From the NCBI GenBank assembly GCA_964291625.2, contig OZ220089.1, forward strand, positions 3,232,001 through 3,296,000: a stretch of DNA of 64,000 nucleotides. Direction: 5' to 3'. The notes beneath the pieces are model-generated. The model ran no database searches, was not told the origin of the DNA, and saw only the letters and a program-made list of their open reading frames with translations. The position numbers and the translations under genes were made by a program. Every line of letters starts with the position of its first letter. The first letter of the stretch is position 1. This DNA is from Candidatus Latescibacterota bacterium (lineage in GTDB: Bacteria > Latescibacterota > UBA2968 > UBA8231). This document shows, one piece after another, positions 11,901-32,366 of the stretch.

Positions 11901-12109
11901 GCTCTTCGACCAAGCTGTCGGCGAGTTCGACAACCCTCACGTTCACCACGGGAGACTGGGAGACGGCGCAGTCGGTGAGGCTCACCGCCAACCAGGACGA
12001 CGACGACCTCAACTACTGGGTGAGCGTGGCCCACACGGCCAGCGGTGGAGGCTACGACTCGTCGGCGGCGAATCTGTACGTGGTCATCGACGACGATGAC
12101 GACGAATAG
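8939..12109 (+). CDS. Cassette gene A1: secreted Ig-like repeat (adhesin-like) protein with Calx-beta-like and SwmB-like domains
   Basis: Signal peptide (…PAQGA); Calx-beta-like N-domain (GTADSTDY...DTLIEGNETF); five ~130-aa repeats (TYxxG...TFSE...SGSGT..LVF.Y.V...DxDxDG...HKVD); ends VVIDDDDDE. Confidence 0.8.
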   Translation: MRVKSRTGILWCTLRPGPGSVLIGLLGSIAFHDPAQGAGFYLECLTTEVREGDSFVVTLVYTSSTTSIIGAYWHTDAGTADSTDYVAQENELHWGSVEDSRNSRVDHTFSTREDTLIEGNETFTVFFTPTDNVVDMNDPDRDNACGITIIDDDPGITRVSVVSTPARDETYGVGETIRFGATFSRAVEVDGNPALGLWVGSNWRSARYLWGSGTRRLAFGYTVKSEDSDSDGVSMDGGYQDSQGQWHNFINHTAVTAVGTDTVAYRAYAGIGHQSGHKVDGSLTPIGTGMEITSTPAGGDSTYRYGETITVALTFSAAVDVDGTVLLNARAGTGDDTWRGVRYQEGSGTRTLVFGYTVQSKDLDTDGFRVEGSYVQDGVRRGFGGSGTVKVKGTDTEVPPNFSGLSDQSGHKLDGRPYARTISITSTPTARSDTYGKGDTIQVSIDFGQAVDAGDGVIAIIRMGSILNQRQPPVASGSGTDTLRFEYEVVEGDRDSNGIDAFLPHGLDIKAAGTDIAYVPNPGGETPAMGEDPAHKVDARLIGNDTRAPTISSISFTDSPGPGADSTYVADDYIGVWVTFSERVLATGAPQVELDIGGTARIARYGQLAGGRTIDPRVQGVANATLVFGYTVQEGDVDSDGISIGENKVSLNGGTIADEASNAAVLTHSAVAADPGHKVDAPDTTAPTVSSVAITSNAGDDSTYAIGDSIRVTVTFSEDVTVNVGGTLQLLVELDVGGTARNADYHSSDSSAVVFNYTVASGDADSDGISIGADKISLDDATIRDAAGNDATLTQTADPEVIAAHPTVAADAAHKVDGVRPAFSSAATSTDGTKVIVTFSEETTVPALLRSISTMVNVALDRFYIAVVGVTVDDDEVVPTAASLADTTLTMTLGSAVTQSQEVEVAYDNIFARDAVGLFIDGAGNALHPFSSRDVTNNSTVADADAGDDPPALTLSHTELEITEGATFDYTVVLGSEPTADVTVTITSSSTKLSASSTTLTFTTGDWETAQSVRLTANQDDDDLNYWVSVAHTASGGGYDSSAANLYVVIDDDDDE

Positions 12110-12136
12110 TCGAAAATCGAAGAGCCTGAATTTCAA

Positions 12137-13387: not shown

Positions 13388-13462
13388 CTCTCCTGAAATG
13401 GTCCCTGCGCATACATGAAACCAGGAATCGCGTTACCCCATTAAAAGAGGGGAGGAATTCCG

Positions 13463-14233
13463 ATGAGACGCATCGTGTCTCCTTCAATTGCTCTGTTCAT
13501 GGGCCTGGCATCCAGCCTTCGGGCGGACCTGGTACCGTTCGAAGGACAGGTACTGGACCTCAGGTCCGCGCCGGTCCATCGGGCCGAGGTGGTGCTCTTC
13601 AACCTCGACAACCCCAGTTCGAGGGTGAGCACGACAACCGACGAGAGCGGCTCCTTCTCGATGTCCCTGGCCGACCTGGCCCTGCCGCGATCGAACGCGC
13701 TGGGGCAGAACTACCCGAATCCGTTCAACCCTTCCACCCTGATCCCCTTTGAGATCGCTGAGAGCGGACACGTTCGCCTGGACGTGTTCAACATCCTGGG
13801 CCAGCGCATGGTCACGCTGATAGATGAACAGCGCCGGGCCGGTCTCTACCAGGCGCAGTGGGACGCCACCGACGCCGAGGGCCGCCCGGTGGGTACCGGG
13901 GTTTACATCTACCGGCTCACCACGGGGAACTGGCAGGAGACGCGCAAGCTGGTCCTGATCGACGGCCCGGCGGGGAGCCCGAACGGGAGCGGCGGGAACA
14001 TCGAGGGGGAGGGGGCCAGGTACGGTGTGGAGATCTCCGGCGAGGAGATCCTCCCGGCGACCTTCACCTGGAGCCCGGAGATGGGCTCCCTGGTGGCGGA
14101 GGTGACCAGCGTGAACAACGTCCATCCCCCCGATCTCGAGGACTCCGGGATGGCCTCCAGTCCCTTCTACGGGACCAGCCTCGCCTCGGTCATCGAGGTC
14201 GTTTCAGCGTTCTCAAAGCGAGGAAGCGAATGA
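13463..14233 (+). CDS. Cassette gene C1: small secreted protein with FlgD-Ig domain nested in a carboxypeptidase-regulatory-like fold
   Basis: Signal peptide (…SLRA); EGQV...TTTDESGSF, then LGQNYPNPFNP...GVYIYRL, then YGVEISG; RBS GGAGGA. Confidence 0.85.
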   Translation: MRRIVSPSIALFMGLASSLRADLVPFEGQVLDLRSAPVHRAEVVLFNLDNPSSRVSTTTDESGSFSMSLADLALPRSNALGQNYPNPFNPSTLIPFEIAESGHVRLDVFNILGQRMVTLIDEQRRAGLYQAQWDATDAEGRPVGTGVYIYRLTTGNWQETRKLVLIDGPAGSPNGSGGNIEGEGARYGVEISGEEILPATFTWSPEMGSLVAEVTSVNNVHPPDLEDSGMASSPFYGTSLASVIEVVSAFSKRGSE

Positions 14234-17088: not shown

Positions 17089-17097
17089 GGGAGAGGC

Positions 17098-18366
17098 GTG
17101 ACCAATCAAGGCGGCAAGCCAGGACTGTCGATACTTGCTCTTGCCCTGGTGTTTCCCCTTTCGCTGCGGGCCGACCCCGACGCTCCCCGGCCTCTCGATT
17201 CCTGGGAGCTGGCGGACAACAGCCTGAAGTTCCGCGTCGAGACCATCCTGGCTCAGCCGGTAGATGGGGATGAACCGATACCCGCAACACCCTCTGTCAC
17301 CCTGGAACTATACCAGGGCCACTTCTACAAGCTCTCGATCCTCACCGAGGCAGCGGAGGGGTATGCCTTTCCCGACCCCGGTCCCCCTGTCCACAGTCCT
17401 CCCCCTTCAACGAGGGCTATGGCGGGGTTCGGATATTACAGCACGCAGTCCGATACCCTGCGGTTCAATGCCCACTATCTGAAGCTGTTCGCGAACGGGA
17501 AGGACCTGGAGGAGCTCATCGAGCAGTCCGGCGACGCCGGGGCCCTCGAGGAGTTCAAGTTCGTCATCTCCCTGGTCAACGGTCTCTACCTGGATCTGTT
17601 CAACCACCTCTACGCCTACGAATCAGGCGACCGGCTGGTGTTCCTGCTTCCCGCGGGCAGCCCCTTCACCGCCGGAATGGGGGATCCCGCGGGCGGGGTG
17701 GTCTGGGAGCTGGAGAGATCCGGACCTTTGCCGTCGTCGTCGATGACGGCCGTGGAGGCCACGGTGCCGGGCGACCAAGCCGCGGGCCTGACCATCGAGT
17801 TCGCGCGCTCCATTGCCGGGCGTGCCGTCCACTACGCCTGGGGCGGGATCACCGACGAGGCCGGCCGGGTGGAGCTGGACCTGTCCACCCTGGACCGGTC
17901 CGGAGCCACCGGTTTCTACCGGGCCCGGGCCAGCCATCGGGGGGGCGAAGTGGTGGGCCAGTGGCACAGCATCCCCCTGAACCGCGACCGTCTCCAGGTC
18001 CTGGAGCTGGTCCCGGGCGGACGGGCGCGCGTGGTCTCCAGCCGGCCGCTGGAGTCGGCCAAGGCGGTGGCGGGGCGGGAGCCGGTGGCCGCCGGGCTGG
18101 CGTCCAACTACCCCAACCCCTTCAACAGCAGCACCCGGATCGAATACGGGCTGGGCGCCGCCGGGCGGGTGCGGCTGGAGATCTACAACGTCCTGGGGCA
18201 GCCGGTGCGCACCCTCGTGGATGAGGAGTCCCAGGACGCCGGGATGTACCAGGTCGAGTGGGACGCCCGGGACCAGCGCGGGGCCGCCGTGGCCGCCGGG
18301 GTCTATCTGACGCGCCTGGTCTACCCGGGAGGAGTGGAGACGCGGCGCGTGCTGTATCTCAAATAG
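17098..18366 (+). CDS. Cassette gene B2: secreted protein with C-terminal FlgD-Ig/T9SS-type domain
   Basis: Highly similar to B1 throughout (e.g. ISLVNGLYLDLFNHLYAYES, identical last ~35 aa); GTG start after GGAGAGG. Confidence 0.85.
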   Translation: MTNQGGKPGLSILALALVFPLSLRADPDAPRPLDSWELADNSLKFRVETILAQPVDGDEPIPATPSVTLELYQGHFYKLSILTEAAEGYAFPDPGPPVHSPPPSTRAMAGFGYYSTQSDTLRFNAHYLKLFANGKDLEELIEQSGDAGALEEFKFVISLVNGLYLDLFNHLYAYESGDRLVFLLPAGSPFTAGMGDPAGGVVWELERSGPLPSSSMTAVEATVPGDQAAGLTIEFARSIAGRAVHYAWGGITDEAGRVELDLSTLDRSGATGFYRARASHRGGEVVGQWHSIPLNRDRLQVLELVPGGRARVVSSRPLESAKAVAGREPVAAGLASNYPNPFNSSTRIEYGLGAAGRVRLEIYNVLGQPVRTLVDEESQDAGMYQVEWDARDQRGAAVAAGVYLTRLVYPGGVETRRVLYLK

Positions 18367-18381
18367 CCGGAGGGAACACCG

Positions 18382-19137
18382 ATGAAACGCATCTCGAGTC
18401 TCCTGCTTGGGTCCATGGTCCTGTCAATCGGCGCGTTGGCCGACGTGGTGCCCTTTGAAGGACGGGTCCTGCTGGCGTCGGAGCCTCTTGCCATACCTGG
18501 AGCCCGGATCGTGCTCTACGACCTGGAGCGTCCGGAGTCCCGGATCACCACCACCACCGCCGCCGACGGCTCCTTCTCCCTGGCCTGGAGCGAGCTGGTC
18601 CGGCCGGAGTCGGATGTGCTTGGGCAGAACTATCCCAATCCCTTCAACCCCTCCACCCTGATGCCCTTCCAGCTCTCCGAGGCCGGGCCCGTGCGTCTGG
18701 ACGTGTTCAACATGCTGGGCCAGCGACTGGTCACCCTGGTGGACGGAGAGCAGTCCGCCGGCCTTCACCAGGTTCAGTGGGACGGCACCGACGGGGCGGG
18801 CCGGGCCGTGGGCGCGGGCGTCTACATCTACCGGCTCACCACCCGTGAAGGCCAGCAGACGCGGAGGCTGGTCCTCGTCGACGGCCAGGCAGGCCGGCCC
18901 GGCCGCGGAGCGGGGACGTCCGAAGGGGTGGTGAGCCCGCGATACGGCGTGGAGATCTCCGGCCAGGACATCGTCACCTCGACCTGGGTGTGGTCGCCGG
19001 AGATGGGGGCGCTCGTTGCCCAGGTCGAGGGCGCCCGGCCGCGGTTGCCGACCGAGCTCGACACGCCCCAGGTGGGACCGAATCCCTTCTCCGGGATCGA
19101 CCTGGACTCGGTGATCCAGGTCATCACCGCGCTCTGA
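18382..19137 (+). CDS. Cassette gene C2: paralog of C1 with internal FlgD-Ig domain
   Basis: Signal peptide; VPFEG, LGQNYPNPFNPSTL, YGVEISG, WSPEMG shared with C1; RBS GGAGGG. Confidence 0.85.
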   Translation: MKRISSLLLGSMVLSIGALADVVPFEGRVLLASEPLAIPGARIVLYDLERPESRITTTTAADGSFSLAWSELVRPESDVLGQNYPNPFNPSTLMPFQLSEAGPVRLDVFNMLGQRLVTLVDGEQSAGLHQVQWDGTDGAGRAVGAGVYIYRLTTREGQQTRRLVLVDGQAGRPGRGAGTSEGVVSPRYGVEISGQDIVTSTWVWSPEMGALVAQVEGARPRLPTELDTPQVGPNPFSGIDLDSVIQVITAL

Positions 19138-19150: not shown

Positions 19151-19524
19151 CGCGTTTCCACCACCGTCTGTGTGTGGTGGTGGTGGCCACATGTGTGGCC
19201 GTTGCCATCCTGATCTGGGGTGACGGGAGGGAGCGGGGTCGTCAACGCCCCACCCGGGTGCCAGCCGGCGAGCCCCCCTTGGCATCGTTGAAGCTCCTCT
19301 ACCCCTGCGACCCCTCTTCCCTCCCCTGCTGCCTGGTTCGCCAGGAAGCTGACCCCTCCCCGGCCTTCCCGGGCCCAGCGGGCTCTTTCTACAACCCGCC
19401 ACTCGGACAAGAACCCGCCGAAAGCACCTGACCGTCCACCGTACGGGGGTAGCCCCAGGACGCGATGGGTCCGAGCAAATCACCCTGATCTGCGCAGGGG
19501 TTGGGGACAACGAATGAGCCGCTG

Positions 19525-22500
19525 ATGGACGCACCCGAATCCACTCCGAGGATTCACGCGCCGTGCTCGGGTGACCTCGGGATTCTGAGGTTCGTGGTCG
19601 TCGGGTTCCTGTGTTTGTTGCCGGGGGCGCTGTCGGAGTCGCGGGTGGAGGGTCAGGGCGGGGCCGTGGTTCCGTCTCGTCTGTACTGGACGGACGGGGG
19701 TCTCGACAAGATCCAGCGTTGCCTGTTGGACGGGTCGGAGGTGGAGGACGTGGTCACCGGCCCGCGTCAGATGCGCGGGCTGGCGGTGGATGTTGCCGGC
19801 CAGCGGCTGTACTGGGCGGACCGGGCCCGCGGCAAGATCCAGCGGTCGGACCTGGATGGCTATGGGGAGCGGGACCTGGTGAGCCACGGCCTGAGCCATC
19901 CCCGGAGCGTGGTGGTGGACCCCGAGGCCGGCCGGATGTACTGGACCGACTCGGGCAGCGACAAGATCCAGGTGGCCGACCTGGACGGCTCGAACGTGCA
20001 GGACCTGATCACGGAAGGCCTCCAGACCCCCCTGGGCCTGGCCCTGGATGGGGACGCCGGGCAGCTATACTGGAGCGACCGGGGCACCGGCAAGATCCAG
20101 CGGTCCCACCTCGACGGCTCCGGGGTGGAGGATCTGGTCACCGGTCTGGGCACCCCCCGGGGCCTGGCCCTGGACCTGGGTGCCGGCCAGATCTACTGGA
20201 CCGACTCCAGTACTGACAAGATCCAGCGATCCAACCTCGACGGCTCCGAGGTGGAGGAGGTGGTGAGCGGTCTGCGCCTGCCGCGGGGCCTGGCCCTGGA
20301 CCCGACCGCGGGCCGGATCTACTGGACGGACTCGGCCGCCGGCAAGATCCAGAGCGCCAACCTGGACGGCTCGGACATGCGCGATCTGGTCACCGGTCTG
20401 CGCGATCCCCGGGGGCTGGCCCTGGCTCTGGCGGAGCCGTCGAACCGCCCCCCGGTGGTGACTCCGATCGAGGACCGCACCCTGGCCGCCGGCGACACCC
20501 TGAGGCTGCCGGTGGGGGGTCAGGATCCGGACGGCGACGAGTTGACTTGGTCGGCGCGCTCCGACGACGAGGCGGTAGCCACTGCAGAGGTCCAGGGCGA
20601 GACCCTGCGCCTCGTGGCCATCGCGCCCGGCCAAGCCTCCATCGAGGTCACCGCCCGCGACCCGGGCGGCCGGAGCGCCACCGAGGCCTTCACCGTCACG
20701 GTGCCGGCCAACCAGCCGCCCGAGGCGGTGGCCCGCCTCTACTGGACGGACGCCGGCACGGGCCGGATCCGCCGGGCCGCCCTCGACGGGTCGGGGGCGG
20801 AAGACCTGATCACCGGGCTGAGTCAGCCCCGGGGCCTGGCCCTGGACGCGGCCGGGGGGCGGCTCTACTGGACCGACAGCCGCGCCGACAAGATCCAGCG
20901 CGCTTCCCTGGACGGCTCGCTGGTGGAGGACCTGGTCACCGACGGCCTGCGGTCGCCCTCGGGTCTGGCCGTCGACCCGGGCGGCGCCAAGGTCTACTGG
21001 AGCGACTACGGCACCCGCCGGATCCAGCGGGCCGACTTGGACGGCAGCGGGGTGGAGGACGTGGTCGTCCGGGGCCTGCGCAGCCCCCTGGGCCTGGCAG
21101 TGGACGGGACCGCTGGCCGGCTCTACTGGACCGACTGGGGCGCCGACCGGATCCAGCGGTCCGGCCTCGACGGCCGGGGCGTGCGCAACCTGGTCACCAC
21201 CGGTTTGCAGTCTCCCCAGGACATCGTCGTGGACCCGGTCGGCGGCTATCTGTACTGGGCCGACTTCGGGACCGACAAGATCCAGCGGGCGGCCCTCGAC
21301 GGCTCGGGGGTGGAGGACGTGATCACCGAGGGCCTGCAGGCTCCCCAGGGTCTGGCGATCGACCCGGCGGCGGGCCGGCTCTACTGGACCGACCCCGGCA
21401 CCGACCGGATCCAGCGGTCCAACCTCGACGGCTCCGAGGTGGAGGACGTGATCACGAAAGACCTGGACACGCCCTACGGGCTGGCCCTGGGCGCGGGTCT
21501 GCCGGCGCGGCAGGTGCGGGCCGGCTACGAGCCGGACACCCTGTCGCTGGCCGGCCGCTTCCTCGACCCGGAGGGCGGCGCCCTGAGCTACCGCGCGGTC
21601 TCGGGGGACACGGCCCTGGCGCTGGCGTCCGTGACCCGGGACACACTGACCGTCACGGGGGTCGCCGCCGGGTACACGTCGATCGAGGTCACCGCGCGGG
21701 ATCCGGAGGGGCTGGAGGCCTCCCTGCCCCTGGCGGTGCGGGTGCTGCCCCACGCCAACCGGCCGCCGGTGCTGACCCCGCTTCCGGACCTGGCCGCCCT
21801 CACCGGGGACACCCTGACCGTCGGCATCGAGGCCACCGACCCCGACGGCGACAGCCTGAGCTACGCGGCCGCTTCCGCTGACACCGCCCTCGTCCAGGCC
21901 AGTACCGCCGATTCGGTGATCACCCTGCGGCCCATCGCGGCGGGCGAGACGTCGATCGCGGTGACGGTCCGCGACGACAGCCTGGCGGTGGCCGACACCT
22001 TCGGGGTGACGGTGTCGTGGTCGAACCGGGCGCCGCAGCCCGGCAGCCTGCGGGCCCGCCAGGTGTTCCTGGGCGGGGTGGCCAGGATCGTCCTGCGCCG
22101 GGAGTTCACCGACCCCGACGGCGACAGCCTGAGCTATACCGCCGCGTCGCGGGACTCGACCGTGGCCACGGCCGCGGTCTCCCGCGACACCCTGACGATC
22201 ACCCCGGTGGCCTCGGGCCGGACGGCGATCGACATGACGGCCACCGATCCGGAGGGCCTGCAGGCGGCCGGGTCCTTCGCCCTCACCGTCCGCCGCCGCC
22301 CCCCGCCCCCACCGCCCGGCGGCGGAGGGGGTGGCGGCGGTGGAGGCGGTGGAGGCGGAGGTTTCTTCATCCCGCCGCCCCCGCCCCCTCCGCCCCGGAC
22401 CACCAACGAGGCGCCGGTCTTCCCCGAGGCGCCGAGCACGTCCCGCACGGTGCCGGAGAACACCGCCGCCAACCGCAACATCCAGCACCCGGTGCGGGCC

Positions 22501-25500
22501 ACCGACGGCGACAACGACCGGCTGACCTACCTGCTCTCCGGCACCGACGCGGACAGCTTCTCCGTGGTCTCCACAAGCGGCCAGTTGCGTACGCGGGCCG
22601 GCATCACCTACGACTTCGAGCTCCGGGACCGCTACCAGGTGCTGCTGGAAGCCGCCGACGGCTACGGCGACACGGCCGACATCGCCGTGACAATCCACCT
22701 GTCCGACGTCGACGAGCCGCCCCGGCCGCCGGCCCGGCCTTTGGTCGAGCCGGCCTCCACGACCCGCCTGACAGTGAGCTGGAGCGAGCCGGTCAACACC
22801 GGCCCCGAGGTCGACGACTACGACGTGCAGTACCGCAGGAGCGGCAGTTTCCTCCCATGGCCTCACGACGGCCCCGGCACGAGCACCACGATCCCGGACC
22901 TGGACCCGAACACCCGCTACGAGGTGCAGGTGCGGGCCTCGAACGCGGAGGGCACGGGCGGCTGGTCGCCTTCGGGCTTCGGCAACACCAGCGCCAACCA
23001 GCGGCCGGTCTTCGACGAGTCCTCTCCCACCCGCACTCTCGACGAGAATACGACCGGGACAAGCGGCATCGGCGGTCCGGTGACCGCCACCGATCCGGAG
23101 AACACCTCCCTGACCTACCGCCTATTGACCGGACGGGACGCGGGCTCCTTCACCATCGGCGAGGCCAGCGGGCAGCTGCGCACGCGGGACGGCGTGGACT
23201 ACGACTACGAGACGAAGAGCCGCTACTCGGTGTTGGTGGAAGCCGAGGACGAGCACGGCGGCCGCACGACCGTCATCGTGACCATCGACCTGATCGACGA
23301 CGACAGCGAGCAGCCCGGGCGGCCGGCCAAGCCGACGGTGTCGGCCTCGACGTCGAGCAGTCTGTCCATCCGCTGGACGGCCCCGGACAACGCAGGGCCG
23401 GCGATCAACGACTACGACGTGCAGTACAGCGAGGACGGCGGCGCCTTCGAGGCGTGGTCCCACACCGGCCCGGGCACGAGCACGACGATCACCGGTTTGA
23501 CGGCCAACACCCCCTACCGGGTGCAGGTGCTGGCGCGCAGCGACGAGGGCGAGAGCCTCTGGTCCGAGTCGGTCGAGGCCACGACCAGCGCCAACCGGGC
23601 GCCCACCTTCAACGAGGGGAACCGCACCACACGGAGCTTTGCGGAAAACACCACCGGGACCAACGACATCGGCAACCCGGTGACCGCCACCGACCGCGAC
23701 GGGGGCACGCCCGACTACAGCCTCGAGGGCACGGACGCGGCGAGTTTCACCATCGACGCGAGCGACGGACAGCTGCAGACCGGGTCCGGCCAGACCTGGG
23801 ACTTCGAGGAGAAAGACCGCTACGAGGTAATCGTGCGGGTCGAGGACGGCCAGGGCGGCAGCAACACCATCGAGGTCACGATCCATCTGACCGACCTGCA
23901 GGAACCGCCGGAAACCCCGGCGGCCCCCAGCGTCTCGGCGGCCTCGTCGACGAGTCTTGCGGTGACTTGGGATGAACCGGCCAACACCGGTCCCGACATC
24001 ACCGACTACGACGTGCAGTACCGGCCGCGGGACACCGGCGGTTTCCGCGGCTGGAGCCACACCGGCGCCGAACGCACGGCCACGATCCCCAGTCTGATCC
24101 CGGACTCCACCTACCAGGTGCAGGTGCTGGCGCGCAGTCCCGAAGGGGCCAGCGGCTGGTCGCCGACGGGCACGGGCACCACCGGCCCCAACGGGCTGCC
24201 CCTCTTCACCGACGGGTCGAGCGCCACCCGCAGCTTCGACGAGAACACCACCGGCGTCGTCGGTGTCGGCGATCCGGTGAGCGCCACCGATCCGGAGAAC
24301 ACGACCCCGACCTACAGCCTCCAGGGGGCGGATGCCGATTCCTTCACCATCGACACCCGCAGCGGACAACTGCGCACCCGGGCGGACAAGATTTGGGACT
24401 ACGAGACCAGGTCCAGCTTTTCGGTCTCGGTGAAGGCCGTGGACGGCCACCAGGGGGAGCGCACCATCCCGGTCTCCATCGACCTGAACGACCTCAACGA
24501 GGCGCCGGTCTTCACCAGCGGCGCGGCCTTCGAAGCGGCGGAAAACCAGACCTTCGCCGGCCGGGTGGAGGCGGAGGATCTCGACAACGCCGACGATATC
24601 ACCGGCTACACCCTCACCGGCGGCGCCGACCGCGACCGCCTGGAGATCGACAACGCAGGCTCCCTGACCTTCCAGGAGGCCCCCGACTTCGAGAGCCCTT
24701 CGGACGCGGGAGGCAACCGGCAGTACAACGTGGTCGTCACCGCCACCGGGGGCGGCGGAGGCCGCGCCCTGACCGCTCAGCAGTCGATCGCCGTCACCCT
24801 CACCGATGAGAACGAGCCGCCGGTGTTCACCAGCGCCGACACCTTCGAGATCCGCGAGAACACCCGGGTCGCCGGCCGCGTGACCGCCCGCGACGTCGAC
24901 GCCGGCGACGCCGTCACCGGCTACGAGGTCACCGGCGGCGCCGACCGGGACGAGTTCGAGATCGTCAGCACCAACCAGCTGCGCTTCAAGGACGACGACG
25001 ACCCCGACTTCGAGGACCCGGACGATTCGGGGGGCGGCAACGACTACAGCGTGGTGGTGGAGGCCACCGGCGGCACGGATCCCCGGGACATGACCGCCTC
25101 CAAGACGGTCGTCGTCCTCGTGGAGGACGTGAACGAACCGCCGGCCCGGCCCGACCCGCCCGCCGTCAGCGACGAGACGGAGAGCAGCCTGACCGTGAGC
25201 TGGGACGAGCCGGCCAACACCGGCCCCGTGATCAGCAACTACCACGTGCAGTACCGCCACAGCGGGACCTATCTCGCCTGGTCCGACAGCGGCGCCGCCC
25301 GGAGCCGCGTGATCACCGGCCTGCGCTCGGGACGGAACTACCAGATCCAGGTGCAGGCCAAGAACGACGAGGGCACGGGAGCCTGGTCCAACGCCGGCAG
25401 CGGCCGGACGCTCACCGCGCCGACGGTCTCCCGCGTCGCCTTCACCTCGACCCCGGCCACGGGACAGAACAACACCTACAAGCTCAGCGACACCCTCGAC

Positions 25501-28500
25501 GTGACCGTCACCTTCAGCGAGGCGGTGACCGTCACCGGCACGCCCCAGGTCGACCTGACCCTCGGCTCCAACGTGCGCCAGGCGGACTACGAGAGCGGCT
25601 CGGCCACGACCCAGCTCCTGTTCCAGTACGAGGTGCAGGACACCGACCAGGACGACAACGGCGCCGCCATCAACGCCAACGGCCTCAGGCTCAACAGCGG
25701 CCGCATCTTCCTCCAAAGAACCAACACCACCGTCAACGCCGACCTGGTCCACTCGGCCCTCGCCAACCAGTCCCGACACAAGGTCGACGGCGTCGCCCCG
25801 ACCCCCACCAAAGCGGAGGTGGATGGAACCAGGCTGACCCTGACGTATGGCGAAGCGCTCGTCAGCAGCCCAAGGCCGGCCAACACCGATTTCGAAGTGA
25901 CCGTAGACAGCGAGACGCGAGATGTTACCGCGGTAGCCGTCAGCAACACCAAGGTAACCCTCACCCTCGCCTCGGCGGCAAACACGGGGGAGACGGTGGC
26001 CCTGGCCTACACACCGGGGACCAACCCGATCCGCGACCTGGCGCAGAACCCCGCCGGCACCCTCAGCAACCTGGCGGTGACCAACCTCAGAAACGTCTGC
26101 CACCGCACCGCCCAGGTGCGGGACGAGATCATGGATGAAGCAGGGGTCAGCGCCTGCGGCGACGTAACCGCGGACCATCTGGCGGCCATCACCCGCCTCT
26201 CCCTGAGCGACGAGAGCATCTCCACGCTGAAAGCCGGCGACTTTGCCGGTCTTACGAGCCTCGAAAAGCTCTACCTGTCAGACAACAATATCAGCACCCT
26301 GCCGGAGAACATCTTCTCCGACCTGTCGGCCCTGGAGGAGCTCTACCTCAAGCAGAACAACCTCTCCAACCTCGGAGCGAACACGTTCTCCGGGCTGACC
26401 TCCCTGTCATCTCTCGACATGTCCTTCAGCCAGCTCGGCGACTTCGACGCCGGCTTGTTCTCCGGGCTGACGTCCCTGACCCATCTCGATCTGCTGAGCG
26501 CCCGTATCTTCAACCTGCCGGCCAACGGCTTCTCCGCGTTGACGGCGCTGGAGACACTCATCCTTCGAAGCAACCTCCTGGGTGACCTCGCCGCCGACGA
26601 ATTCTCCGGTTTGTCGGGGCTGGAACACCTCGACCTGAGCAGTACCCGAATCACCAGCCTTCCCGTGGACGCCTTCTCCAACCTGTCCGGGCTCAAGCAC
26701 CTCGACCTGGAGTATGCCCGACTCACCAGCTTTCCGCCGGCCGTGTTCTCCGGCTTGTCGTCGCTCGAACACCTCGGCCTGAACCTCAATAGGATGAGCA
26801 GCGGCAGCCTCGACGCCGGCCTGTTCTCCGGGCTGACGTCCCTGACTCATCTCGACCTGCGCAGCATGGATCTCACCTCCGTGCCCGCCAACCTCTTCTC
26901 CGGGCTGACCGCGCTCGAGTTCCTCGACCTGGGCTACAACAACGACCTCGCCACACTGCCGGCCACCGTCTTTTCCGCCCTGACGGACCTCAGAACCCTG
27001 AACCTGAGAACCAACGACATCTCCACCCTGCCGACCGGTCTTCTTTCCGGACTGACGGAGCTGAGATCGCTGGACCTCAGACAATGGGATCTGTCGACCC
27101 TGCCGGACGGCGCGTTTACCGGACTGACGAAGCTGACCAAGCTCCAGCTCCAGTGGAACCCGGTCGACCCCTTGCCGATCACCGTCTCACTGGAATCGGC
27201 CGGGACGGATCAGTTCCGGGCCAAGGCGCACACCGGCGCGCCCTTTGACATCGTCCTGCCGCTGCGGCTCGCCAACGGCGAGATCGAGGGCGGCGAATCG
27301 AGCCTCACCATTCCGCAGGGCAGCGTCGAGAGCGGAACCCTCACGGTCGCCCGCACCGCCGGGACCAAGGCGGCGGTCACCGTCGATCTCGGGGCGCTGC
27401 CGGAACGGCCCGCCAGCGACAACGGCTACGAGCTGGTGCGGTCCGAGGACCTGCCGCTGGCAGTCATCGACGCCGAAGCCGGGGTGGAGATCTATCCCAC
27501 CGAACTGACCTTGGCAGAGGACGAAAGCGACACCTACACGGTGGTGCTGACCATGCAGCCCACCAGCGACGTGACGGTAACGGTGACCGTGCCGTCGGGG
27601 GCCGATGTCACGGTGAACCCGTCGCCGCTGACTTTCACGACCGACAACTGGGATACACCGCAGACCGTGACGGTGAGTACCAGCGCCGACACCGACAGCG
27701 ACGACGACGAGGTCACCCTCACCCACACCGTAAGCGGGGGCTACCAGGGAGTGACCGCCGATGACGTGGAGGTGACGGTCACGGAGGCCGCGGTCACCAC
27801 CAACAGCCCGCCGTCCATCTTCCACAACTCCTGGACCGTAAACGAGAACTTCACCGGTCACATATCCATAGTGGGAACGGATCCGGATGCCAGGGACTAC
27901 ATCACCGGGTACGAGATCACCGGGGGCCCCGACCGGGCGCTGTTCGAGATCACCACCCGAAGCGGCCGGGGCGAGCTCACCTTCGTCGATGTACCCGACT
28001 TCGAACGTCCGGCGGGCACCAGCAACCGGAATGAGATCGTTGTCACCGTCACCAGCGGCATGGGCACCCGGGAACGGACCGGGCAGCGGCAGATCGCCGT
28101 CAACGTGTCCGACGTGGACGAGCCGCCCGGCCGGCCGCCGGCGCCACGGCTGAGTTTCCGAGACGGAGTTACTCCCACCATCGCGGTGAGCATGGGGGGC
28201 CGGATCCCGCCGGTGAATACGGGGCCGGAAATCACTGGCTGGGGAGTGCAACACCGGGAGAAGGACAGCGGCGACGATTTCACCAGTACCACGTACACGT
28301 CCGCGACCCTGGATGGGCGGATCGAGAATCTGACAAAAGACCTCACTTACGAGGTGCAGGTGCAGGCGAAGAACGACGAAGGCGACAGCGAGTGGTCCCC
28401 CTCGGCGGAGATAGAGATACCCAACCAGCCGCCGGTCGCCGTCGGCACCTTCAACGACCTCACGCTGGCGGTGGGGGGCGCTGTCGAGACCGTATCCGTG

Positions 28501-29928
28501 GACGGCGTGTTCAGCAGCCCGGACCGGGACCTGCTCACCTATACGGTGTCGTCCGGCAACACGGCTGCCGCTACCGTTCGAATGGTCAGCACGGAGATCC
28601 TCGTAGATCCGCAGGCCGCCGGCACCGCGACGATCACGGTAACGGCCAGCGATCCCTATGGCGCGTCCGACTCCGAGACGTTCGACGTCACAGTCCGGAC
28701 ACCGACCCTTTCGGCGCCCACCCTGACCATCACCGGCGACCTCTTCACGCTGTCATTCACGGATGACTTCGCGTCCGAGGAAACCCGGGCCTACCACGTA
28801 CGAATCCGTCAGAAGACGAACCATGGACCCTGGGCGACAGGGTGCCATACCGAGACCAACGATGAAGCTTCTCAACAGTCCATTTCCGTAACGCTGGAGG
28901 ACGCGGTATCGGATCTCTTCGAACCGGGCACCACATATGAGGCCGACTACGGATACCTGGGGGCATCCTGCGACGGCGGCCTGACGGGCTCGAGGTCCGC
29001 GACCGACGAGGAGACCACGTCCGGGACGGCTTCCTTCGATATCGAGCTTGTCTTCGTCGGCAGCGTCTCGTCGACATACCGAACCTATGTTGAAGACGCG
29101 GCCGAGCGCTGGGAGGAGATCATCACCGGCGATCTTCCCAACCATCGTCTATCCAGCAGCAACCGCAGCTTTCTGAATGGGGAATTTCCAGGGACTGCCG
29201 CCCCCGAGGTTGTGGATGACCTCGTGATCTACGTGCGCGTCGTTGACCTGGTCGGTGTGATCGGACAGGGGGCGTCGCTGGTGAGCCGGGTCCCTTCCTT
29301 TCTGCCGGCCGTATCCCAAATCACTCTCGATTCGGACATACTGAGCACGTATTCGGAAGGAATACAGAGAGCCGTCGTTCTGCACGAGATAGGCCACGCG
29401 CTGGGATTCTCAGCCAAGACATGGACATTTCTCGACTTGCTGAAGGACCCCTCCCTCACTCCATTCCAAACTCCCATCGATCCCGCTCCGGACACCTATT
29501 TCCCGGGCGCCAAGGCGATTGTCGCCTTCGACGCGGCGGGTGGAACGAGCTACACCGGCGCCAAGGTGCCGGTGGAGAACGTCGGCGGAGGGGGCAACCG
29601 GGACAGCCACTGGCGGGAATCCGTAATGGACGGCGAACTGATGACGTCAAGGTTGGAATCCTCTTCCAATCCGCTCAGCGCGATCACCATCCAGTCGATG
29701 GCCGACCTCGGCTACACCGTGGATGTCACCCAGGCCGACGCTTACACCCTGCCGTCTACCAACAACTACCCTTCCATTCTTTCTTCCATTTCCGCCAAGC
29801 GGGTTGCAGGTGCGGCCGGAGACGAACAGGAGGAGTTGGTCCTGAACTGTGCCCTGGACCATCCCGAAACCGGACCCGACGAGTCCGAGCCGATCACCCT
29901 GAATTTGCGCAGGGTCAAGAAGGAGTGA
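19525..29928 (+). CDS. Giant secreted multidomain protein: two YWTD (LDL-receptor class B) propellers, Ig/cadherin repeats, FN3 repeats, A-type Ig repeat + SwmB-like domain, ~14 LRRs, C-terminal leishmanolysin (M8)-like Zn metallopeptidase
   Basis: Repeated RLYWTD...KIQRSNLDGS; cadherin motifs (ATDxD, DYE, DVNEPP); FN3 (W..P.NTGP...YDVQY...YEVQV); LRR LxxLxLxxNxLxxLPxxxFSGL; HEIGHALGF plus SHWRESVMDGELMT. ORF is open from 19501; ATG 19525 preferred. Confidence 0.88.
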   Translation: MDAPESTPRIHAPCSGDLGILRFVVVGFLCLLPGALSESRVEGQGGAVVPSRLYWTDGGLDKIQRCLLDGSEVEDVVTGPRQMRGLAVDVAGQRLYWADRARGKIQRSDLDGYGERDLVSHGLSHPRSVVVDPEAGRMYWTDSGSDKIQVADLDGSNVQDLITEGLQTPLGLALDGDAGQLYWSDRGTGKIQRSHLDGSGVEDLVTGLGTPRGLALDLGAGQIYWTDSSTDKIQRSNLDGSEVEEVVSGLRLPRGLALDPTAGRIYWTDSAAGKIQSANLDGSDMRDLVTGLRDPRGLALALAEPSNRPPVVTPIEDRTLAAGDTLRLPVGGQDPDGDELTWSARSDDEAVATAEVQGETLRLVAIAPGQASIEVTARDPGGRSATEAFTVTVPANQPPEAVARLYWTDAGTGRIRRAALDGSGAEDLITGLSQPRGLALDAAGGRLYWTDSRADKIQRASLDGSLVEDLVTDGLRSPSGLAVDPGGAKVYWSDYGTRRIQRADLDGSGVEDVVVRGLRSPLGLAVDGTAGRLYWTDWGADRIQRSGLDGRGVRNLVTTGLQSPQDIVVDPVGGYLYWADFGTDKIQRAALDGSGVEDVITEGLQAPQGLAIDPAAGRLYWTDPGTDRIQRSNLDGSEVEDVITKDLDTPYGLALGAGLPARQVRAGYEPDTLSLAGRFLDPEGGALSYRAVSGDTALALASVTRDTLTVTGVAAGYTSIEVTARDPEGLEASLPLAVRVLPHANRPPVLTPLPDLAALTGDTLTVGIEATDPDGDSLSYAAASADTALVQASTADSVITLRPIAAGETSIAVTVRDDSLAVADTFGVTVSWSNRAPQPGSLRARQVFLGGVARIVLRREFTDPDGDSLSYTAASRDSTVATAAVSRDTLTITPVASGRTAIDMTATDPEGLQAAGSFALTVRRRPPPPPPGGGGGGGGGGGGGGGFFIPPPPPPPPRTTNEAPVFPEAPSTSRTVPENTAANRNIQHPVRATDGDNDRLTYLLSGTDADSFSVVSTSGQLRTRAGITYDFELRDRYQVLLEAADGYGDTADIAVTIHLSDVDEPPRPPARPLVEPASTTRLTVSWSEPVNTGPEVDDYDVQYRRSGSFLPWPHDGPGTSTTIPDLDPNTRYEVQVRASNAEGTGGWSPSGFGNTSANQRPVFDESSPTRTLDENTTGTSGIGGPVTATDPENTSLTYRLLTGRDAGSFTIGEASGQLRTRDGVDYDYETKSRYSVLVEAEDEHGGRTTVIVTIDLIDDDSEQPGRPAKPTVSASTSSSLSIRWTAPDNAGPAINDYDVQYSEDGGAFEAWSHTGPGTSTTITGLTANTPYRVQVLARSDEGESLWSESVEATTSANRAPTFNEGNRTTRSFAENTTGTNDIGNPVTATDRDGGTPDYSLEGTDAASFTIDASDGQLQTGSGQTWDFEEKDRYEVIVRVEDGQGGSNTIEVTIHLTDLQEPPETPAAPSVSAASSTSLAVTWDEPANTGPDITDYDVQYRPRDTGGFRGWSHTGAERTATIPSLIPDSTYQVQVLARSPEGASGWSPTGTGTTGPNGLPLFTDGSSATRSFDENTTGVVGVGDPVSATDPENTTPTYSLQGADADSFTIDTRSGQLRTRADKIWDYETRSSFSVSVKAVDGHQGERTIPVSIDLNDLNEAPVFTSGAAFEAAENQTFAGRVEAEDLDNADDITGYTLTGGADRDRLEIDNAGSLTFQEAPDFESPSDAGGNRQYNVVVTATGGGGGRALTAQQSIAVTLTDENEPPVFTSADTFEIRENTRVAGRVTARDVDAGDAVTGYEVTGGADRDEFEIVSTNQLRFKDDDDPDFEDPDDSGGGNDYSVVVEATGGTDPRDMTASKTVVVLVEDVNEPPARPDPPAVSDETESSLTVSWDEPANTGPVISNYHVQYRHSGTYLAWSDSGAARSRVITGLRSGRNYQIQVQAKNDEGTGAWSNAGSGRTLTAPTVSRVAFTSTPATGQNNTYKLSDTLDVTVTFSEAVTVTGTPQVDLTLGSNVRQADYESGSATTQLLFQYEVQDTDQDDNGAAINANGLRLNSGRIFLQRTNTTVNADLVHSALANQSRHKVDGVAPTPTKAEVDGTRLTLTYGEALVSSPRPANTDFEVTVDSETRDVTAVAVSNTKVTLTLASAANTGETVALAYTPGTNPIRDLAQNPAGTLSNLAVTNLRNVCHRTAQVRDEIMDEAGVSACGDVTADHLAAITRLSLSDESISTLKAGDFAGLTSLEKLYLSDNNISTLPENIFSDLSALEELYLKQNNLSNLGANTFSGLTSLSSLDMSFSQLGDFDAGLFSGLTSLTHLDLLSARIFNLPANGFSALTALETLILRSNLLGDLAADEFSGLSGLEHLDLSSTRITSLPVDAFSNLSGLKHLDLEYARLTSFPPAVFSGLSSLEHLGLNLNRMSSGSLDAGLFSGLTSLTHLDLRSMDLTSVPANLFSGLTALEFLDLGYNNDLATLPATVFSALTDLRTLNLRTNDISTLPTGLLSGLTELRSLDLRQWDLSTLPDGAFTGLTKLTKLQLQWNPVDPLPITVSLESAGTDQFRAKAHTGAPFDIVLPLRLANGEIEGGESSLTIPQGSVESGTLTVARTAGTKAAVTVDLGALPERPASDNGYELVRSEDLPLAVIDAEAGVEIYPTELTLAEDESDTYTVVLTMQPTSDVTVTVTVPSGADVTVNPSPLTFTTDNWDTPQTVTVSTSADTDSDDDEVTLTHTVSGGYQGVTADDVEVTVTEAAVTTNSPPSIFHNSWTVNENFTGHISIVGTDPDARDYITGYEITGGPDRALFEITTRSGRGELTFVDVPDFERPAGTSNRNEIVVTVTSGMGTRERTGQRQIAVNVSDVDEPPGRPPAPRLSFRDGVTPTIAVSMGGRIPPVNTGPEITGWGVQHREKDSGDDFTSTTYTSATLDGRIENLTKDLTYEVQVQAKNDEGDSEWSPSAEIEIPNQPPVAVGTFNDLTLAVGGAVETVSVDGVFSSPDRDLLTYTVSSGNTAAATVRMVSTEILVDPQAAGTATITVTASDPYGASDSETFDVTVRTPTLSAPTLTITGDLFTLSFTDDFASEETRAYHVRIRQKTNHGPWATGCHTETNDEASQQSISVTLEDAVSDLFEPGTTYEADYGYLGASCDGGLTGSRSATDEETTSGTASFDIELVFVGSVSSTYRTYVEDAAERWEEIITGDLPNHRLSSSNRSFLNGEFPGTAAPEVVDDLVIYVRVVDLVGVIGQGASLVSRVPSFLPAVSQITLDSDILSTYSEGIQRAVVLHEIGHALGFSAKTWTFLDLLKDPSLTPFQTPIDPAPDTYFPGAKAIVAFDAAGGTSYTGAKVPVENVGGGGNRDSHWRESVMDGELMTSRLESSSNPLSAITIQSMADLGYTVDVTQADAYTLPSTNNYPSILSSISAKRVAGAAGDEQEELVLNCALDHPETGPDESEPITLNLRRVKKE

Positions 29929-30054
29929 GAGGGCGTCCGGCCGCCGTTGCCGGCCGAACTCGACATGCCCCAGGTGGGACCGAATCACCTTCTCCGGGAT
30001 CGACCTGGACTCGGTGATTCAGGTCATCACCGCGCTCTGATTCGGCCAGGGTGC
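29929..30054 (+). pseudogene. Frameshifted relic of the 3' end of a C-type cassette gene (repeat copy 2)
   Basis: Matches 19027-19150 and has a 1-nt insertion (aatcaccttc vs aatcccttc); starts immediately after the giant gene's stop. Confidence 0.85.
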
Positions 30055-30200
30055 GGGGTCTCGCCCCTCCGTGACCTCCTTGAGGCGGCACGACCCTCGT
30101 GCCTGGACGAAGATCTACGGACTATCGCTGGCACAACTACAGCTGAGCCGGGGAGGGACTACTCCAGGCGCGGTCCACGGGCGGGCGTCCGGCCGCCGTA

Positions 30201-30388
30201 CCACACCCACGAGAAGGACCAGTCGGCGCCGTGGCGGCAGCCGAAGGGGACCGGCGAGCCGATGAGCAGGTGGCGGCGGTCCTGCTTCTGCCGGGAGCGC
30301 CCGTACCATCCCCAAGCCTCGTCGCTGGCGTGGGCGTCGTTCATGCGGAAGCCAGCGAAGACCTGCAGGCCGCTGCGCCGGGCGCCGT
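30201..30388 (-). pseudogene. Internal fragment of a GHL10-like gene (repeat copy 2 of 4719-4906)
   Basis: Translates MNDAHASDEAWGWYGRSRQKQDRRHLLIGSPVPFGCRHGADWSFSWVW, nearly identical to part of 3648-5303; no start or stop context of its own. Confidence 0.85.
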
Positions 30389-30402
30389 TGGCCGCCGACG
30401 GC

Positions 30403-30927
30403 CTACCTCAGATCGAACCTGACGCCAAGCCCCCGAAGCATCTCGACCGTGTTGTGACAGGTAATGTCGAACTCTCGGCACAGGTTTGGGATAGGCACTC
30501 GCCTCTTTACGTTTGGGTCGAATACCTCGTTTGTGACCAGGATGGCGCCGTGAACCTTTGCGTACGCCGCCAGCCATCCGTCCGCGCTACCTGCAAACTC
30601 ATGCTTCCCTACAGCAAGAAAGCGGGCACCGCCTTGGACCCAATTCTGCATGTCTGAGAAGACTTCCACAACCTCTTGTTCACCAGTAGAAGCGAACGCG
30701 CCGGACCAGTTCTCACTCAGCCAATTGACCAATCCATCGGGACTGGCCAATTCACTTCGTACTCGATCAATGCTCAACAACCTTCCTTTGCGCGCATAGC
30801 GTTCGAGGCAATCCCAGAATCCTGGATACAGGTCTATTGGATAGTGATCGTGCCAAGCAGTCATGAGTACATTGGCGTCCAATACATACAGACCCGTCGA
30901 GCTTCTGCGGGTCGAAGGGGTCGTCAC
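30403..30927 (-). CDS. DUF4411-family PIN-domain protein (putative toxin)
   Basis: YVLDANV..., YP...PGFW, ADGWLAAYAK, LVTNE, IPNLC pattern; ATGA overlap with upstream gene; lower GC. Confidence 0.85.
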   Translation of the reverse strand: MTTPSTRRSSTGLYVLDANVLMTAWHDHYPIDLYPGFWDCLERYARKGRLLSIDRVRSELASPDGLVNWLSENWSGAFASTGEQEVVEVFSDMQNWVQGGARFLAVGKHEFAGSADGWLAAYAKVHGAILVTNEVFDPNVKRRVPIPNLCREFDITCHNTVEMLRGLGVRFDLR

Positions 30928-32099
30928 AATACAAACCCCATTTCCTCCGGCATCTTGGCAAAGGTATCTCCCTTGAGTCCCGTAAGGCTGTATGCCTCGC
31001 GGTAGGACAACCGACCTTCCCTGACAGCACGACTCACTGCGGCCCCAAGACGAGCGCCCAACCGCCAGTGTTGGTTCCTCCAGAAGTCACCGCCGCGCCG
31101 GGGCTCGTCTTGTGAAGTCCTACTCGCGTCTCTTGCCTTGTTTGCTTCGTAGTATTCGAAGAAAACGCTTCGAGCTATCAACCGGCAGTCAAGAGCGCGG
31201 CGGGCAGCTACCACCGTGCTCACCTTGAAGTGTCGTGCCAGGTCCCGGAAAGGATCAGCTGTCTTCTTGGCAGAGGGCCATCGTTGGGTGAGTTCGCTCT
31301 CTGGCACCAGGAACTCGGCTGCCATGTGGTTGCAGGATTCCTCGGTCCGATCGCCCGTCCAGTGCAAGTCTTCAAGTTTGGACAAGCCAGGTTGATTGAC
31401 AAAGATGTGAGCGAGCTCATGGGCGAGGGTGAATATCTGAGCCGTCTTGTAGTCTGCGTTATTGACGAAAACAAGTGGAGCGTACTCATCTACCAGGGCA
31501 AATCCCTGGAATTCACCAGGATCCAGTTTTCGGTGAGTGTCGTTACCCACAACTCCATTGAAAACGACCAGGACGCCAGCGGATTCAATGCAGTCTCGCA
31601 ACGTCCGGAGGGCATTGGCCCAACTTCCTTCAGCTGCCGCCCACCCGCTCCTGAGGCGTAGCGCGTCGCTCATGGCCGCAGCAACCTGCTGCAACTCAGA
31701 GTCCGGGCTGAAAGCCCCAACGAATCGTAGAGGTGCAGCTTCCTGATGGATCAGCTCCTCTCGCATCCACAGCTGCCGCTGCTGCATCTGGAACACCGTT
31801 TCCAGCAGATTGGGACTTGGGCGGCTGGGCGTAGTACCCCCTCGGACACGAAAGTCCCTGATTGGCAGACTATCGTCCGGAGGTTCGGCCAGGTAGAGAT
31901 GACCGACAGGTGTATGGGTGCGCCTCGCCAGGGCGTCGGCCCTGGCCAAAGTGATCTTGCCGGAACTCTCCCACTCAGAAACGACCCGAGACTCAACCCC
32001 AAGCCGTTGAGCGAGTTGGCCCCGGTCCAGGCCGGCTCGCTCCCGTGCCCATCTCAGGACCGTAGGCTGAAGCGTTACTCTTGCGCGTCGACCCGTCAT
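30924..32099 (-). CDS. XRE-HTH + ImmA/IrrE (peptidase M78) metallopeptidase
   Basis: LRWARERAGL...EWESSG HTH; FVNNAD...QIFTLAHELAH zinc motif; E..CN..AAEFLVP; FKVS. Confidence 0.9.
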   Translation of the reverse strand: MTGRRARVTLQPTVLRWARERAGLDRGQLAQRLGVESRVVSEWESSGKITLARADALARRTHTPVGHLYLAEPPDDSLPIRDFRVRGGTTPSRPSPNLLETVFQMQQRQLWMREELIHQEAAPLRFVGAFSPDSELQQVAAAMSDALRLRSGWAAAEGSWANALRTLRDCIESAGVLVVFNGVVGNDTHRKLDPGEFQGFALVDEYAPLVFVNNADYKTAQIFTLAHELAHIFVNQPGLSKLEDLHWTGDRTEESCNHMAAEFLVPESELTQRWPSAKKTADPFRDLARHFKVSTVVAARRALDCRLIARSVFFEYYEANKARDASRTSQDEPRRGGDFWRNQHWRLGARLGAAVSRAVREGRLSYREAYSLTGLKGDTFAKMPEEMGFVL

Positions 32100-32366
32100 C
32101 ACTCACCGTCGTGCAACGTCCATTTGTATTCTGGGAGGCCGGCCGCCTTGAGGCTGACCACCCTCACTACACTTGGGGAAACGCAGTACCTGGGAACATA
32201 GATGCTCAAACGTGCAGGGACAAGCCTGTTGCCCCTGCGCTCTACCGGGGCCCTGTGGCTTCGAGCGTTCGGGAGGGCTGAAGCCTGGGGCGGTCCACGG
32301 GTACATCACTTGGCGACTGTGGACTCCATCTAGATGGCTGAGGGGCAGGAACCACTCGGAAAGATA

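Follow-up and report, generated by a model that had tools for sequence, protein, structure and literature searches.

Leishmanolysin (GP63) of Leishmania major (structure 1LML; Pfam family PF01457, MEROPS family M8) is a metzincin peptidase with a membrane anchor and an N-terminal cysteine switch. Bacterial proteins that are automatically named as leishmanolysin related belong to the same protease family, and we found no characterised member of this bacterial branch in the literature that was searched. To our knowledge, sponge symbionts possess many animal-type repeat and adhesion domains, almost none of which has an assigned activity. In sponge metagenome-assembled genomes (MAGs), including those of Latescibacterota, cadherin, fibronectin type III (FN3) and leucine-rich repeat (LRR) or other repeat proteins are described as enriched and laterally transferred (available passages of PMC8163846 and PMC12993501). 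Among the metzincins secreted by bacteria, cytophagalysin CPL1 is described as large and as carrying many accessory segments (abstract of PMC11674741). Here, we analysed 64,000 nucleotides of a Candidatus Latescibacterota bacterium (assembly GCA_964291625.2, contig OZ220089.1, positions 3,232,001 to 3,296,000 of the forward strand; "the window"), in which one gene encodes a 3,475-residue protein ("the giant protein") that combines such modules with a leishmanolysin-like protease at its C-terminal end.

In the giant protein, a leishmanolysin-related peptidase of bacterial type appears to be joined to adhesion arrays of the kind known from symbionts. The annotation of the protease family and the adhesion modules of sponge symbionts were both already known; the variant found here is their fusion. 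Relatives named in databases and listed in our searches are mostly 200 to 530 amino acids (aa) in length and have Big_1 or Big_2 domains, whereas the giant protein adds YWTD, cadherin, FN3, and LRR arrays. The eukaryote-like proteins of sponge symbionts (LRR, NHL/YWTD-type propellers, cadherin, FN3) contain the same module types, but the surveys count domains per genome, and the passages available from them (PMC8163846, PMC12993501) describe neither an architecture of this type nor a protease fusion. Our literature search found no report tying leishmanolysin to sponge symbionts. According to the available text on CPL1, that enzyme is a pappalysin and thus of another metzincin family; at 137 kDa it is also much smaller, and its accessory domains differ. 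The account that we favour, and that we regard as moderately probable when taken as a whole, is that a real gene in a sponge-associated member of the Latescibacterota encodes a Sec-exported, extracellular protein composed of a head, a stalk, an LRR solenoid, and a protease, which binds and cleaves its targets and is held latent by its tail. Animal-type modules joined to an intact catalytic domain make the action of such a protein on a host testable.

The C-terminal protease domain and its family

A sequence-only reading of the window had described the protein as ending in a GP63-like peptidase with HEIGH and SHW...ELMT motifs, and the C terminus does align to M8, both above the Pfam cut-off and by predicted fold. 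Pfam Peptidase_M8 (PF01457) matched aa 3240 to 3414 (E = 9.7e-13; 48.1 bits versus a cut-off of 21), and leishmanolysin 1LML was the sole sequence match at E ≤ 0.01 among all solved chains (E = 0.0011). In the latter alignment, HEIGHALGF lies on HEMAHALGF, SHW lies on SHI (the third His), and ELMT lies on ELMA (the Met-turn). The protease of the giant protein thus has in common with GP63 the HExxHxxGF motif, the Met-turn, and a long insert before the third His (71 residues here, from His3299 to His3370). An AlphaFold2 (AF2) model built from 82 sequences had predicted local distance difference test (pLDDT) values of >90 across model residues 31 to 270. A Foldseek search with this model returned 1LML as the sole match at E ≤ 1e-3 (E = 2.6e-11), and VIA-align superposed the two with a Z score of 22.2 and a root mean square deviation of 4.1 (chain range 105 to 460; 19% identity), while the runner-up, a matrix metalloproteinase (MMP), reached a Z score of 9.2.

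The resemblance to GP63 has clear limits. The PF01457 match is confined to profile positions 166 to 334 of 529, leaving positions 1 to 165 and 335 to 529 unmatched, and 247 of 465 residues align. No pro-peptide adjoins the protease on its N-terminal side; in a second AF2 model, the 104 residues that precede it instead form a beta-sandwich pre-domain, in which Cys3157 was invariant and Cys3115 was at least 90% conserved among the 37 rows of a clade alignment. Because both ends of the Pfam profile are unmatched and a beta-sandwich occupies the place of a pro-segment, we assign the domain to a compact bacterial branch; by sequence and predicted fold, it is a leishmanolysin-type metzincin in compact form, in which every catalytic residue is present, and it is no orthologue of GP63. 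Unlike in GP63, this domain stands at the end of a 3,475-aa protein of a bacterium, with a conserved tail behind it. The domain description made from the sequence was correct as to modules, but its M8 match holds for the compact core only, and it missed the tail of about 50 residues.

Inactive metzincin homologues exist in other families, and the domain could be a catalytically dead binding module. Nothing specific favours such a role, the match to a family named for inactive metzincins being a weak one. On the other side, an 82-row alignment across phyla showed no variation in the His, Glu, His, and Gly of the zinc motif and conservation of at least 90% for the third His and for the Met of the Met-turn; in the 37-row clade, the latter two were invariant as well. 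We consider a dead module highly improbable.

The protease family is large. With a 305-residue protease query, 5,331 cluster representatives matched at E ≤ 1e-3 and 694 at E ≤ 1e-30, and the matched domain was nearly always C-terminal in proteins of 147 to 3,936 aa. Among proteins similar in length to the query, 1,277 matched at E ≤ 1e-3, and most of these were already annotated with PF01457. Names given in the databases include "leishmanolysin-related zinc metalloendopeptidase," "leishmanolysin/Big-like domain-containing protein," "Ig-like domain-containing," and "hypothetical." Of 379 candidate stretches in species-representative genomes, 310 could be confirmed. The top-ranking loci lay in MAGs labelled Candidatus Latescibacterota (46 to 82% identity across the whole cassette), followed by gammaproteobacterial MAGs (Azotimanducaceae, Pseudohongiella, and Pseudomonadales) and then by Gemmatimonadota, including Candidatus Palauibacter. 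In a survey of the phylum, 60 of 168 genomes had matches at E ≤ 1e-10, with up to 9 matches per genome; by family, matches occurred in 29/75 (f1), 14/31 (f2), 15/22 (f4), and 1/1 (f8) genomes, and the nine other families had 0/35. The window's genome comprises 5.9 Mb in 2 contigs and is 95% complete; in it, a family-specific profile detected six ORFs (open reading frames) of the protease family, whereas PF01457 by itself detected one copy; thus, the Pfam count understates the family. Taken together, the protease appears to be neither a recent eukaryotic import nor restricted to host-associated bacteria. The label "eukaryote-like," which the sequence-only reading applied to the whole protein, suits the YWTD and LRR parts, whose solved relatives are metazoan, and does not suit the protease, with its 5,331 bacterial-family representatives.

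Two loci of the family are recorded here for their arrangement. One protease paralogue in the window's genome (L102, G000:C1:1296309-1296998) has two in-frame TGA codons and may be a pseudogene. In a related genome, four genes ending in the cassette (4,059, 612, 3,808, and 1,734 aa) lie on one strand within ~41 kb (L012 to L014; G019:C2:3761000-3803000), with small proteins bearing type IX secretion system (T9SS) tails encoded between them.

The conserved tail

Several metzincins are kept latent by a short, mostly unstructured peptide that places one Asp or Cys on the catalytic zinc. In the passages available to us, the Asp of an F-E-G-D-I motif blocks the zinc of astacins, a Cys does so in their bacterial relative myroilysin, and MMPs and karilysin use Cys and Asp, respectively (PMC9629494); a switch of this kind, with a Cys, is also described for mirolysin (PMC6949598, PMC8259862). 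In these descriptions the switch peptides are N-terminal, whereas the candidate in the giant protein is C-terminal.

The tail Cys (Cys3450 in the giant protein) was invariant in the clade (37/37 rows). In all 36 Cys-type loci listed, it was the odd cysteine beside paired ones; the others were the pre-domain pair, ~42 residues apart, and, in some loci, a second pair inside the protease. Gemmatimonadota-type proteins lack the tail Cys and have an Asp in a similar context instead, and one Latescibacterota protein (L097) has a Cys inside an otherwise Asp-type tail. When 292 non-identical tails were aligned with MAFFT without guidance, one column contained Asp in 165 rows, Cys in 106, and Glu in 4. 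Asp- and Cys-type tails both have Ile or Val at position +1 and Pro ~5 residues further on, and, as judged by eye, the other 21 rows mostly show one of Glu, Asp, and Cys a few residues away. The five shorter paralogues in the window's genome also have Cys or Asp at the tail position. In minimal members of the family, which have no further parts, a short linker joins a lipoprotein-type signal to the protease and its tail, and those inspected had no pro-segment candidate besides the tail. The Asp/Cys/Glu column is new here, and it is the most novel and most testable point of this analysis.

Based on this column, the unpaired Cys, the composition of the minimal members, and the Asp and Cys switches of known metzincins, we propose that the tail acts as a switch peptide at the C-terminal end. 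Its Cys would sit on the catalytic zinc, in the manner of the cysteine switch of other metzincins, and would free it once the tail has been displaced or taken away. The switch residue would lie ~55 to 70 residues past the Met-turn Met; the Latescibacterota giants would use Cys, most Gemmatimonadota forms Asp, and a few proteins Glu. With rather less than even confidence, we extend this proposal to the whole bacterial M8-like family, from 300-aa lipoproteins to 4,000-aa giants, all of which would be latent via a C-terminal switch; in the giants, swappable heads would couple capture to local activation on sponge matrix or surface proteins. If true, a Cys or Asp switch on the C-terminal instead of the N-terminal side would be a first among metzincin families, and the tail column provides a concrete and inexpensive hypothesis for the regulation of the whole branch.

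The tail could also serve a purpose other than latency, its Cys, Asp, or Glu functioning in sorting or attachment, in an intermolecular disulfide, or in a structural metal site. The low predicted order of the tail in both AF2 models is compatible with such a role, as are the basic residues at the end of both tail types and the absence, in family scans, of a known export signal from the giant protein. However, no hydrophobic anchor follows the Cys, no conserved neighbour gene in related loci would fit as a dedicated partner, and alternation among Cys, Asp, and Glu is typical of metal ligands and unusual for a disulfide or sorting residue. We regard these other functions, taken together, as doubtful and still prefer a switch.

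Binding modules, relatives and habitat

The description of the remainder of the protein as a mosaic of YWTD, immunoglobulin (Ig)/cadherin, FN3, and LRR modules was borne out by Pfam E values and motif counts (the features are listed in Table 1). The two YWTD propellers that it named are evident as 12 YW[TSA]D motifs spaced ~43 aa apart in two groups of six, with Pfam Ldl_recept_b matching 10 stretches (E = 1.2e-96). The closest solved relatives of propeller 1 are the propellers of LRP2, LRP4, and LRP6, LDLR, and nidogen. In the metazoan arrangement, an epidermal growth factor (EGF) module follows the propeller; no EGF family was among the Pfam matches of the giant protein, and Ig-like He_PIG/Big_9 domains stand behind each propeller instead (Big_9, E = 7.9e-20). 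The DNA encoding propeller 2 contains tandem periods of 126 to 129 and 258 bases, and the Pro/Gly-rich linker contains a 9-base tandem repeat (22318-22358). The stalk has the order Cad-FN3-Cad-FN3-Cad-FN3-Cad-Cad-Cad-FN3, as read from Pfam tiles and manually from the translation (fn3, E = 1.2e-66, 5 stretches; Cadherin, E = 2.4e-43, 5 stretches, for the giant protein).

Likewise, the predicted set of about 14 LRRs of 24 aa with a Cys N-cap agrees with our segmentation, which gave 14 tandem LxxLxLxxNxL units in aa 2230 to 2575 (24 aa in 11 of them, 25 and 26 aa in one each, and 31 aa in the last) preceded by the cap residues Cys2200 and Cys2219. LRR_8 matched 9 stretches (E = 7.9e-67), and Pfam found no C-terminal LRR cap family. 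The closest solved relatives of this part are IGF-ALS, LRRC15, TLR13, and LGR4, which are metazoan typical LRR proteins. Since the best solved relatives of the YWTD and LRR parts are both metazoan, the label "animal-type" seems fair for both. Low-scoring matches to type III effectors (NCBIfam XopAC, XopL, XopAE, and SlrP) were far under the cut-offs and driven by the LRRs, and we rejected that identity. Within the beta-rich region that follows the LRRs, a cadherin-like unit may be present, as suggested by a DxDEPP-type end. The sequence-only reading also held that modules of these kinds are enriched in sponge symbionts, which agrees, as far as cadherin, FN3, and LRR are concerned, with the available portions of PMC8163846 and PMC12993501. 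YWTD repeats are abundant in the window's genome (76 matches in 11 ORFs), and none of 14 control genomes had any.

The architecture recurs in several related MAGs. Full-length collinear homologues were found at L027 (a single alignment over aa 36 to 3471; 59.9% identity), L031 (aa 974 to 3474; 74.8%), L049, and L045, all with the same Pfam set as the giant protein. From ~aa 690 to 1026 onward, depending on the homologue, the body is 72 to 75% identical to those of L020, L019, L031, and L028. In L019, L020, and L028, the head starts differently and has no YWTD motif, while YWTD repeats are present in L031. In a tree of the protease domain, obtained by a quick tree search only, the window's protein grouped with L019 and L020 (support, 98), and YWTD-bearing proteins were spread across three subclades of a 31-row Latescibacterota clade (support, 97). 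We conclude from this scatter that heads and protease cassettes were repeatedly lost or recombined. A gammaproteobacterial MAG encodes a 3,019-aa protein (L048) with the FN3, cadherin, SWM, and LRR set and 47% identity over aa 2323 to 3426. The exchangeable heads on a conserved body, together with L048, lend themselves well to the study of how co-resident symbionts shuffle and transfer domains. In addition, proteins of 981 to 1,164 aa from Candidatus Palauibacter MAGs (L064 and L079) have an Asp-type cassette at the end and 4 to 5 YW[TSA]D-like tetrapeptides each; in L079, Pfam Ldl_recept_b fell short of 1e-6.

Matches in sequencing runs bear on the habitat. Run X1, possibly the source, contained 67% of sampled words. 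An RNA library labelled sponge metagenome (X2) yielded three contigs with zero mismatches (25919-26160, 28212-28406, and 29702-29896), and a DNA run with the same label from a different study (X3) yielded one zero-mismatch contig (29728-29918) and one contig with a single mismatch. From these near-identical sequences we conclude that the organism lives in sponges, and the contigs from X2 give a weak hint that the giant gene is transcribed. Four other runs (X4 to X7) had small word shares, and the pieces listed for X4 had 7 to 19 mismatches and were not used as habitat evidence.

How the protein might act can be outlined from its parts. The propellers and the LRR solenoid would bind extracellular ligands, e.g., host matrix or host or microbial surface proteins, and the metzincin would cut proteins held nearby. 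The YWTD head, at the N-terminal end, is the part that varies between homologues; it is followed by a stalk formed by a long run of Ig, cadherin, and FN3 beta-sandwiches, then by the 14-repeat LRR solenoid, and then by the protease cassette. In this arrangement, the giant protein may bind to the host and cleave host proteins.

A nutritional role is an alternative. The protein would then be a tethered or secreted digestive enzyme whose modules hold collagen- or spongin-type matrix or particulate protein, much as carbohydrate-binding modules serve glycosidases, so that the M8 domain frees peptides for uptake, and it would have no part in signalling or immune evasion. Such a role would suit a family that is widespread in Gemmatimonadota MAGs with free-living-sounding names, usually as proteins of 400 to 1,400 aa with Ig-like domains, and that is represented six times in the window's genome; sponge Latescibacterota have moreover been proposed to degrade complex substrates (PMC12993501, available passages). 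However, an animal-type receptor array of 3,200 residues goes far beyond usual substrate tethering, and variable heads on a conserved body fit diversifying recognition better. We consider a purely nutritional role unlikely.

A further alternative is a giant adhesin for host, biofilm, or bacteria that processes itself: its metzincin would act in cis or on a sister molecule, and the protein would thereby be released or matured, with the tail as the first substrate. The position of the protease at the extreme end of proteins of every length would be in keeping with this, as would the clustering of family genes (four within 41 kb in G019) and the tail and low-complexity linker behind the protease. 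In the minimal members, though, the protease and tail leave nothing to release. Self-processing seems to us quite improbable.

The account that we favour, in which the protein binds and cleaves its targets and is kept latent by its tail, has to be set against four groups of results that count against it. First, the tail had pLDDT values of 32 to 59 in both AF2 models, and its position was not predicted; rerunning AF2 on a clade-only alignment left the confidence for the tail no higher. (Complex predictions of the protease, model residues 28 to 278, with the tail, 279 to 330, and zinc scored 0.12 and 0.18 versus a mark of 0.32 and speak neither for nor against docking of the tail.) Second, family scans revealed no recognised outer-membrane export or anchoring signal in the giant protein. 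Third, contigs from an RNA library are no proof of transcription. Finally, the protease family is also found in MAGs whose isolate names (names only) suggest soil, groundwater, lake, and sediment, and the protease by itself is therefore no argument for host interaction.

The gene, its export and its neighbours

The giant gene is a single uninterrupted ORF on the + strand that extends from a TTG at 19501 to 29928, with the first ATG at 19525. G+C content along the gene is 0.60 to 0.74, and as a result long spurious ORFs overlap it in other frames; we took this frame as coding because curated family matches span its full length. G+C content at third codon positions (GC3) was 0.89 to 0.97 in the N-terminal two thirds (~0.95 in propeller 2, the Ig domains, and the linker) and fell to 0.72 to 0.75 (~0.73) in the pre-domain, protease, and tail, a drop that fits a mosaic history.

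Table 1. Features of the giant gene and its product, in window coordinates
Feature	Position	Strand	Residues (aa)	Basis
Signal-peptide-like N-terminal segment	19525..19635	+	26-44 hydrophobic	Hydropathy scan
YWTD (LDL-receptor class B) six-bladed propeller 1	19672..20454	+	six motifs, 62-274	Motifs; Pfam Ldl_recept_b
Ig-like domain (He_PIG/Big_9/Big_2)	20461..20715	+		Pfam
YWTD six-bladed propeller 2	20728..21516	+	six motifs, 414-628	Motifs; Pfam
About three Ig-like domains (Big_9, Cadherin_4)	21526..22290	+		Pfam tiles 7-9
Pro/Gly-rich linker	22291..22425	+	931-975	Translation
Stalk, six cadherin and four FN3 domains	22426..25395	+		Pfam Cadherin/fn3, tiles 10-20
Two beta-sandwich units, the first unassigned, the second an SWM_repeat	25396..26085	+	SWM_repeat, 2096-2174	PF13753, E = 9.7e-15; TIGR02059
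Two-Cys N-cap and 14 LRRs	26086..27225	+		LRR_8; segmentation
Beta-rich region, unassigned	27226..28206	+		Weak fn3_6 match; tiles 27-28 with 0-1 families
FN3, then Big_9 Ig-like domain	28207..28692	+		Pfam tiles 29-30
Pre-domain, predicted seven-strand beta-sandwich	28699..29010	+	Cys3115/Cys3157 pair	AF2 model 2, pLDDT 73-93
Compact leishmanolysin-like (M8) metzincin catalytic domain	29011..29775	+		Pfam; 1LML alignment; AF2/Foldseek/VIA-align
HEIGHALGF zinc motif	29383-29409	+	3295-3303	
Third zinc ligand	29608-29610	+	His3370 (SHW at 3369)	
Met-turn Met	29641-29643	+	Met3381 (ELMT at 3379)	
Linker and conserved tail with unpaired Cys	29776..29925 (Cys codon, 29848-29850)	+	Cys3450	Clade and tail alignments

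The hydrophobic segment listed first in Table 1 is the sole strongly hydrophobic stretch near either terminus, and the N termini of homologues are similar; it fits a putative Sec signal peptide or signal anchor. The hydropathy scan showed no further transmembrane-like stretch in the giant protein except a buried strand in the protease. As for the individual export signals, neither the whole protein nor its last 410 aa matched the T9SS type A/B sorting domain NCBIfam TIGR04183, there was no family match to RTX/type I secretion- or PEP-CTERM-type signals, and hydropathy revealed no hydrophobic C-terminal segment. Three upstream neighbours do have T9SS type A sorting domains (33 to 44 bits versus a cut-off of 23), and the window's genome has two PorU genes above cut-off; about 50 of its ORFs have T9SS-tail-like ends. 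Together with the YWTD count, the T9SS-like ends and PorU genes point to a very large secreted repertoire.

Across related loci, no conserved neighbour gene emerged as a dedicated secretion or activation partner. The ORF immediately downstream of the giant gene (29947-30657; 236 aa) had no family match and no counterpart in related loci and is probably not a partner. It lies within a region (29947-32102) in which G+C content dips to 0.60 just past the giant gene and whose - strand encodes a 392-aa M78/IrrE-type peptidase. Upstream, exported-protein genes occupy 8939-19137 (+) and include the three with T9SS type A domains (416, 422, and 251 aa) as well as two ORFs of ~1,050 aa that have no family match and whose middles resemble an internal part of the giants, which we judge from locus coordinates to be the SWM-repeat region. 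Adjoining this block of secreted-protein genes is a gene (5300-8350, -) for a 1,016-aa sigma-54 activator with Reg_prop/Y_Y_Y propeller sensor repeats before its AAA+ domain. Still further upstream (312-2744, +), an 810-aa protein with VIT and VWA domains is similar to the "marine proteobacterial sortase target" family, with 383.8 bits versus a cut-off of 551.65, and has a T9SS-type end at 22.9 bits versus a cut-off of 23. Downstream, a 495-aa AAA_21/AAA_15 ATPase of AbiEii-like/OLD type (38071-39558, +) may be the product of a defence gene.

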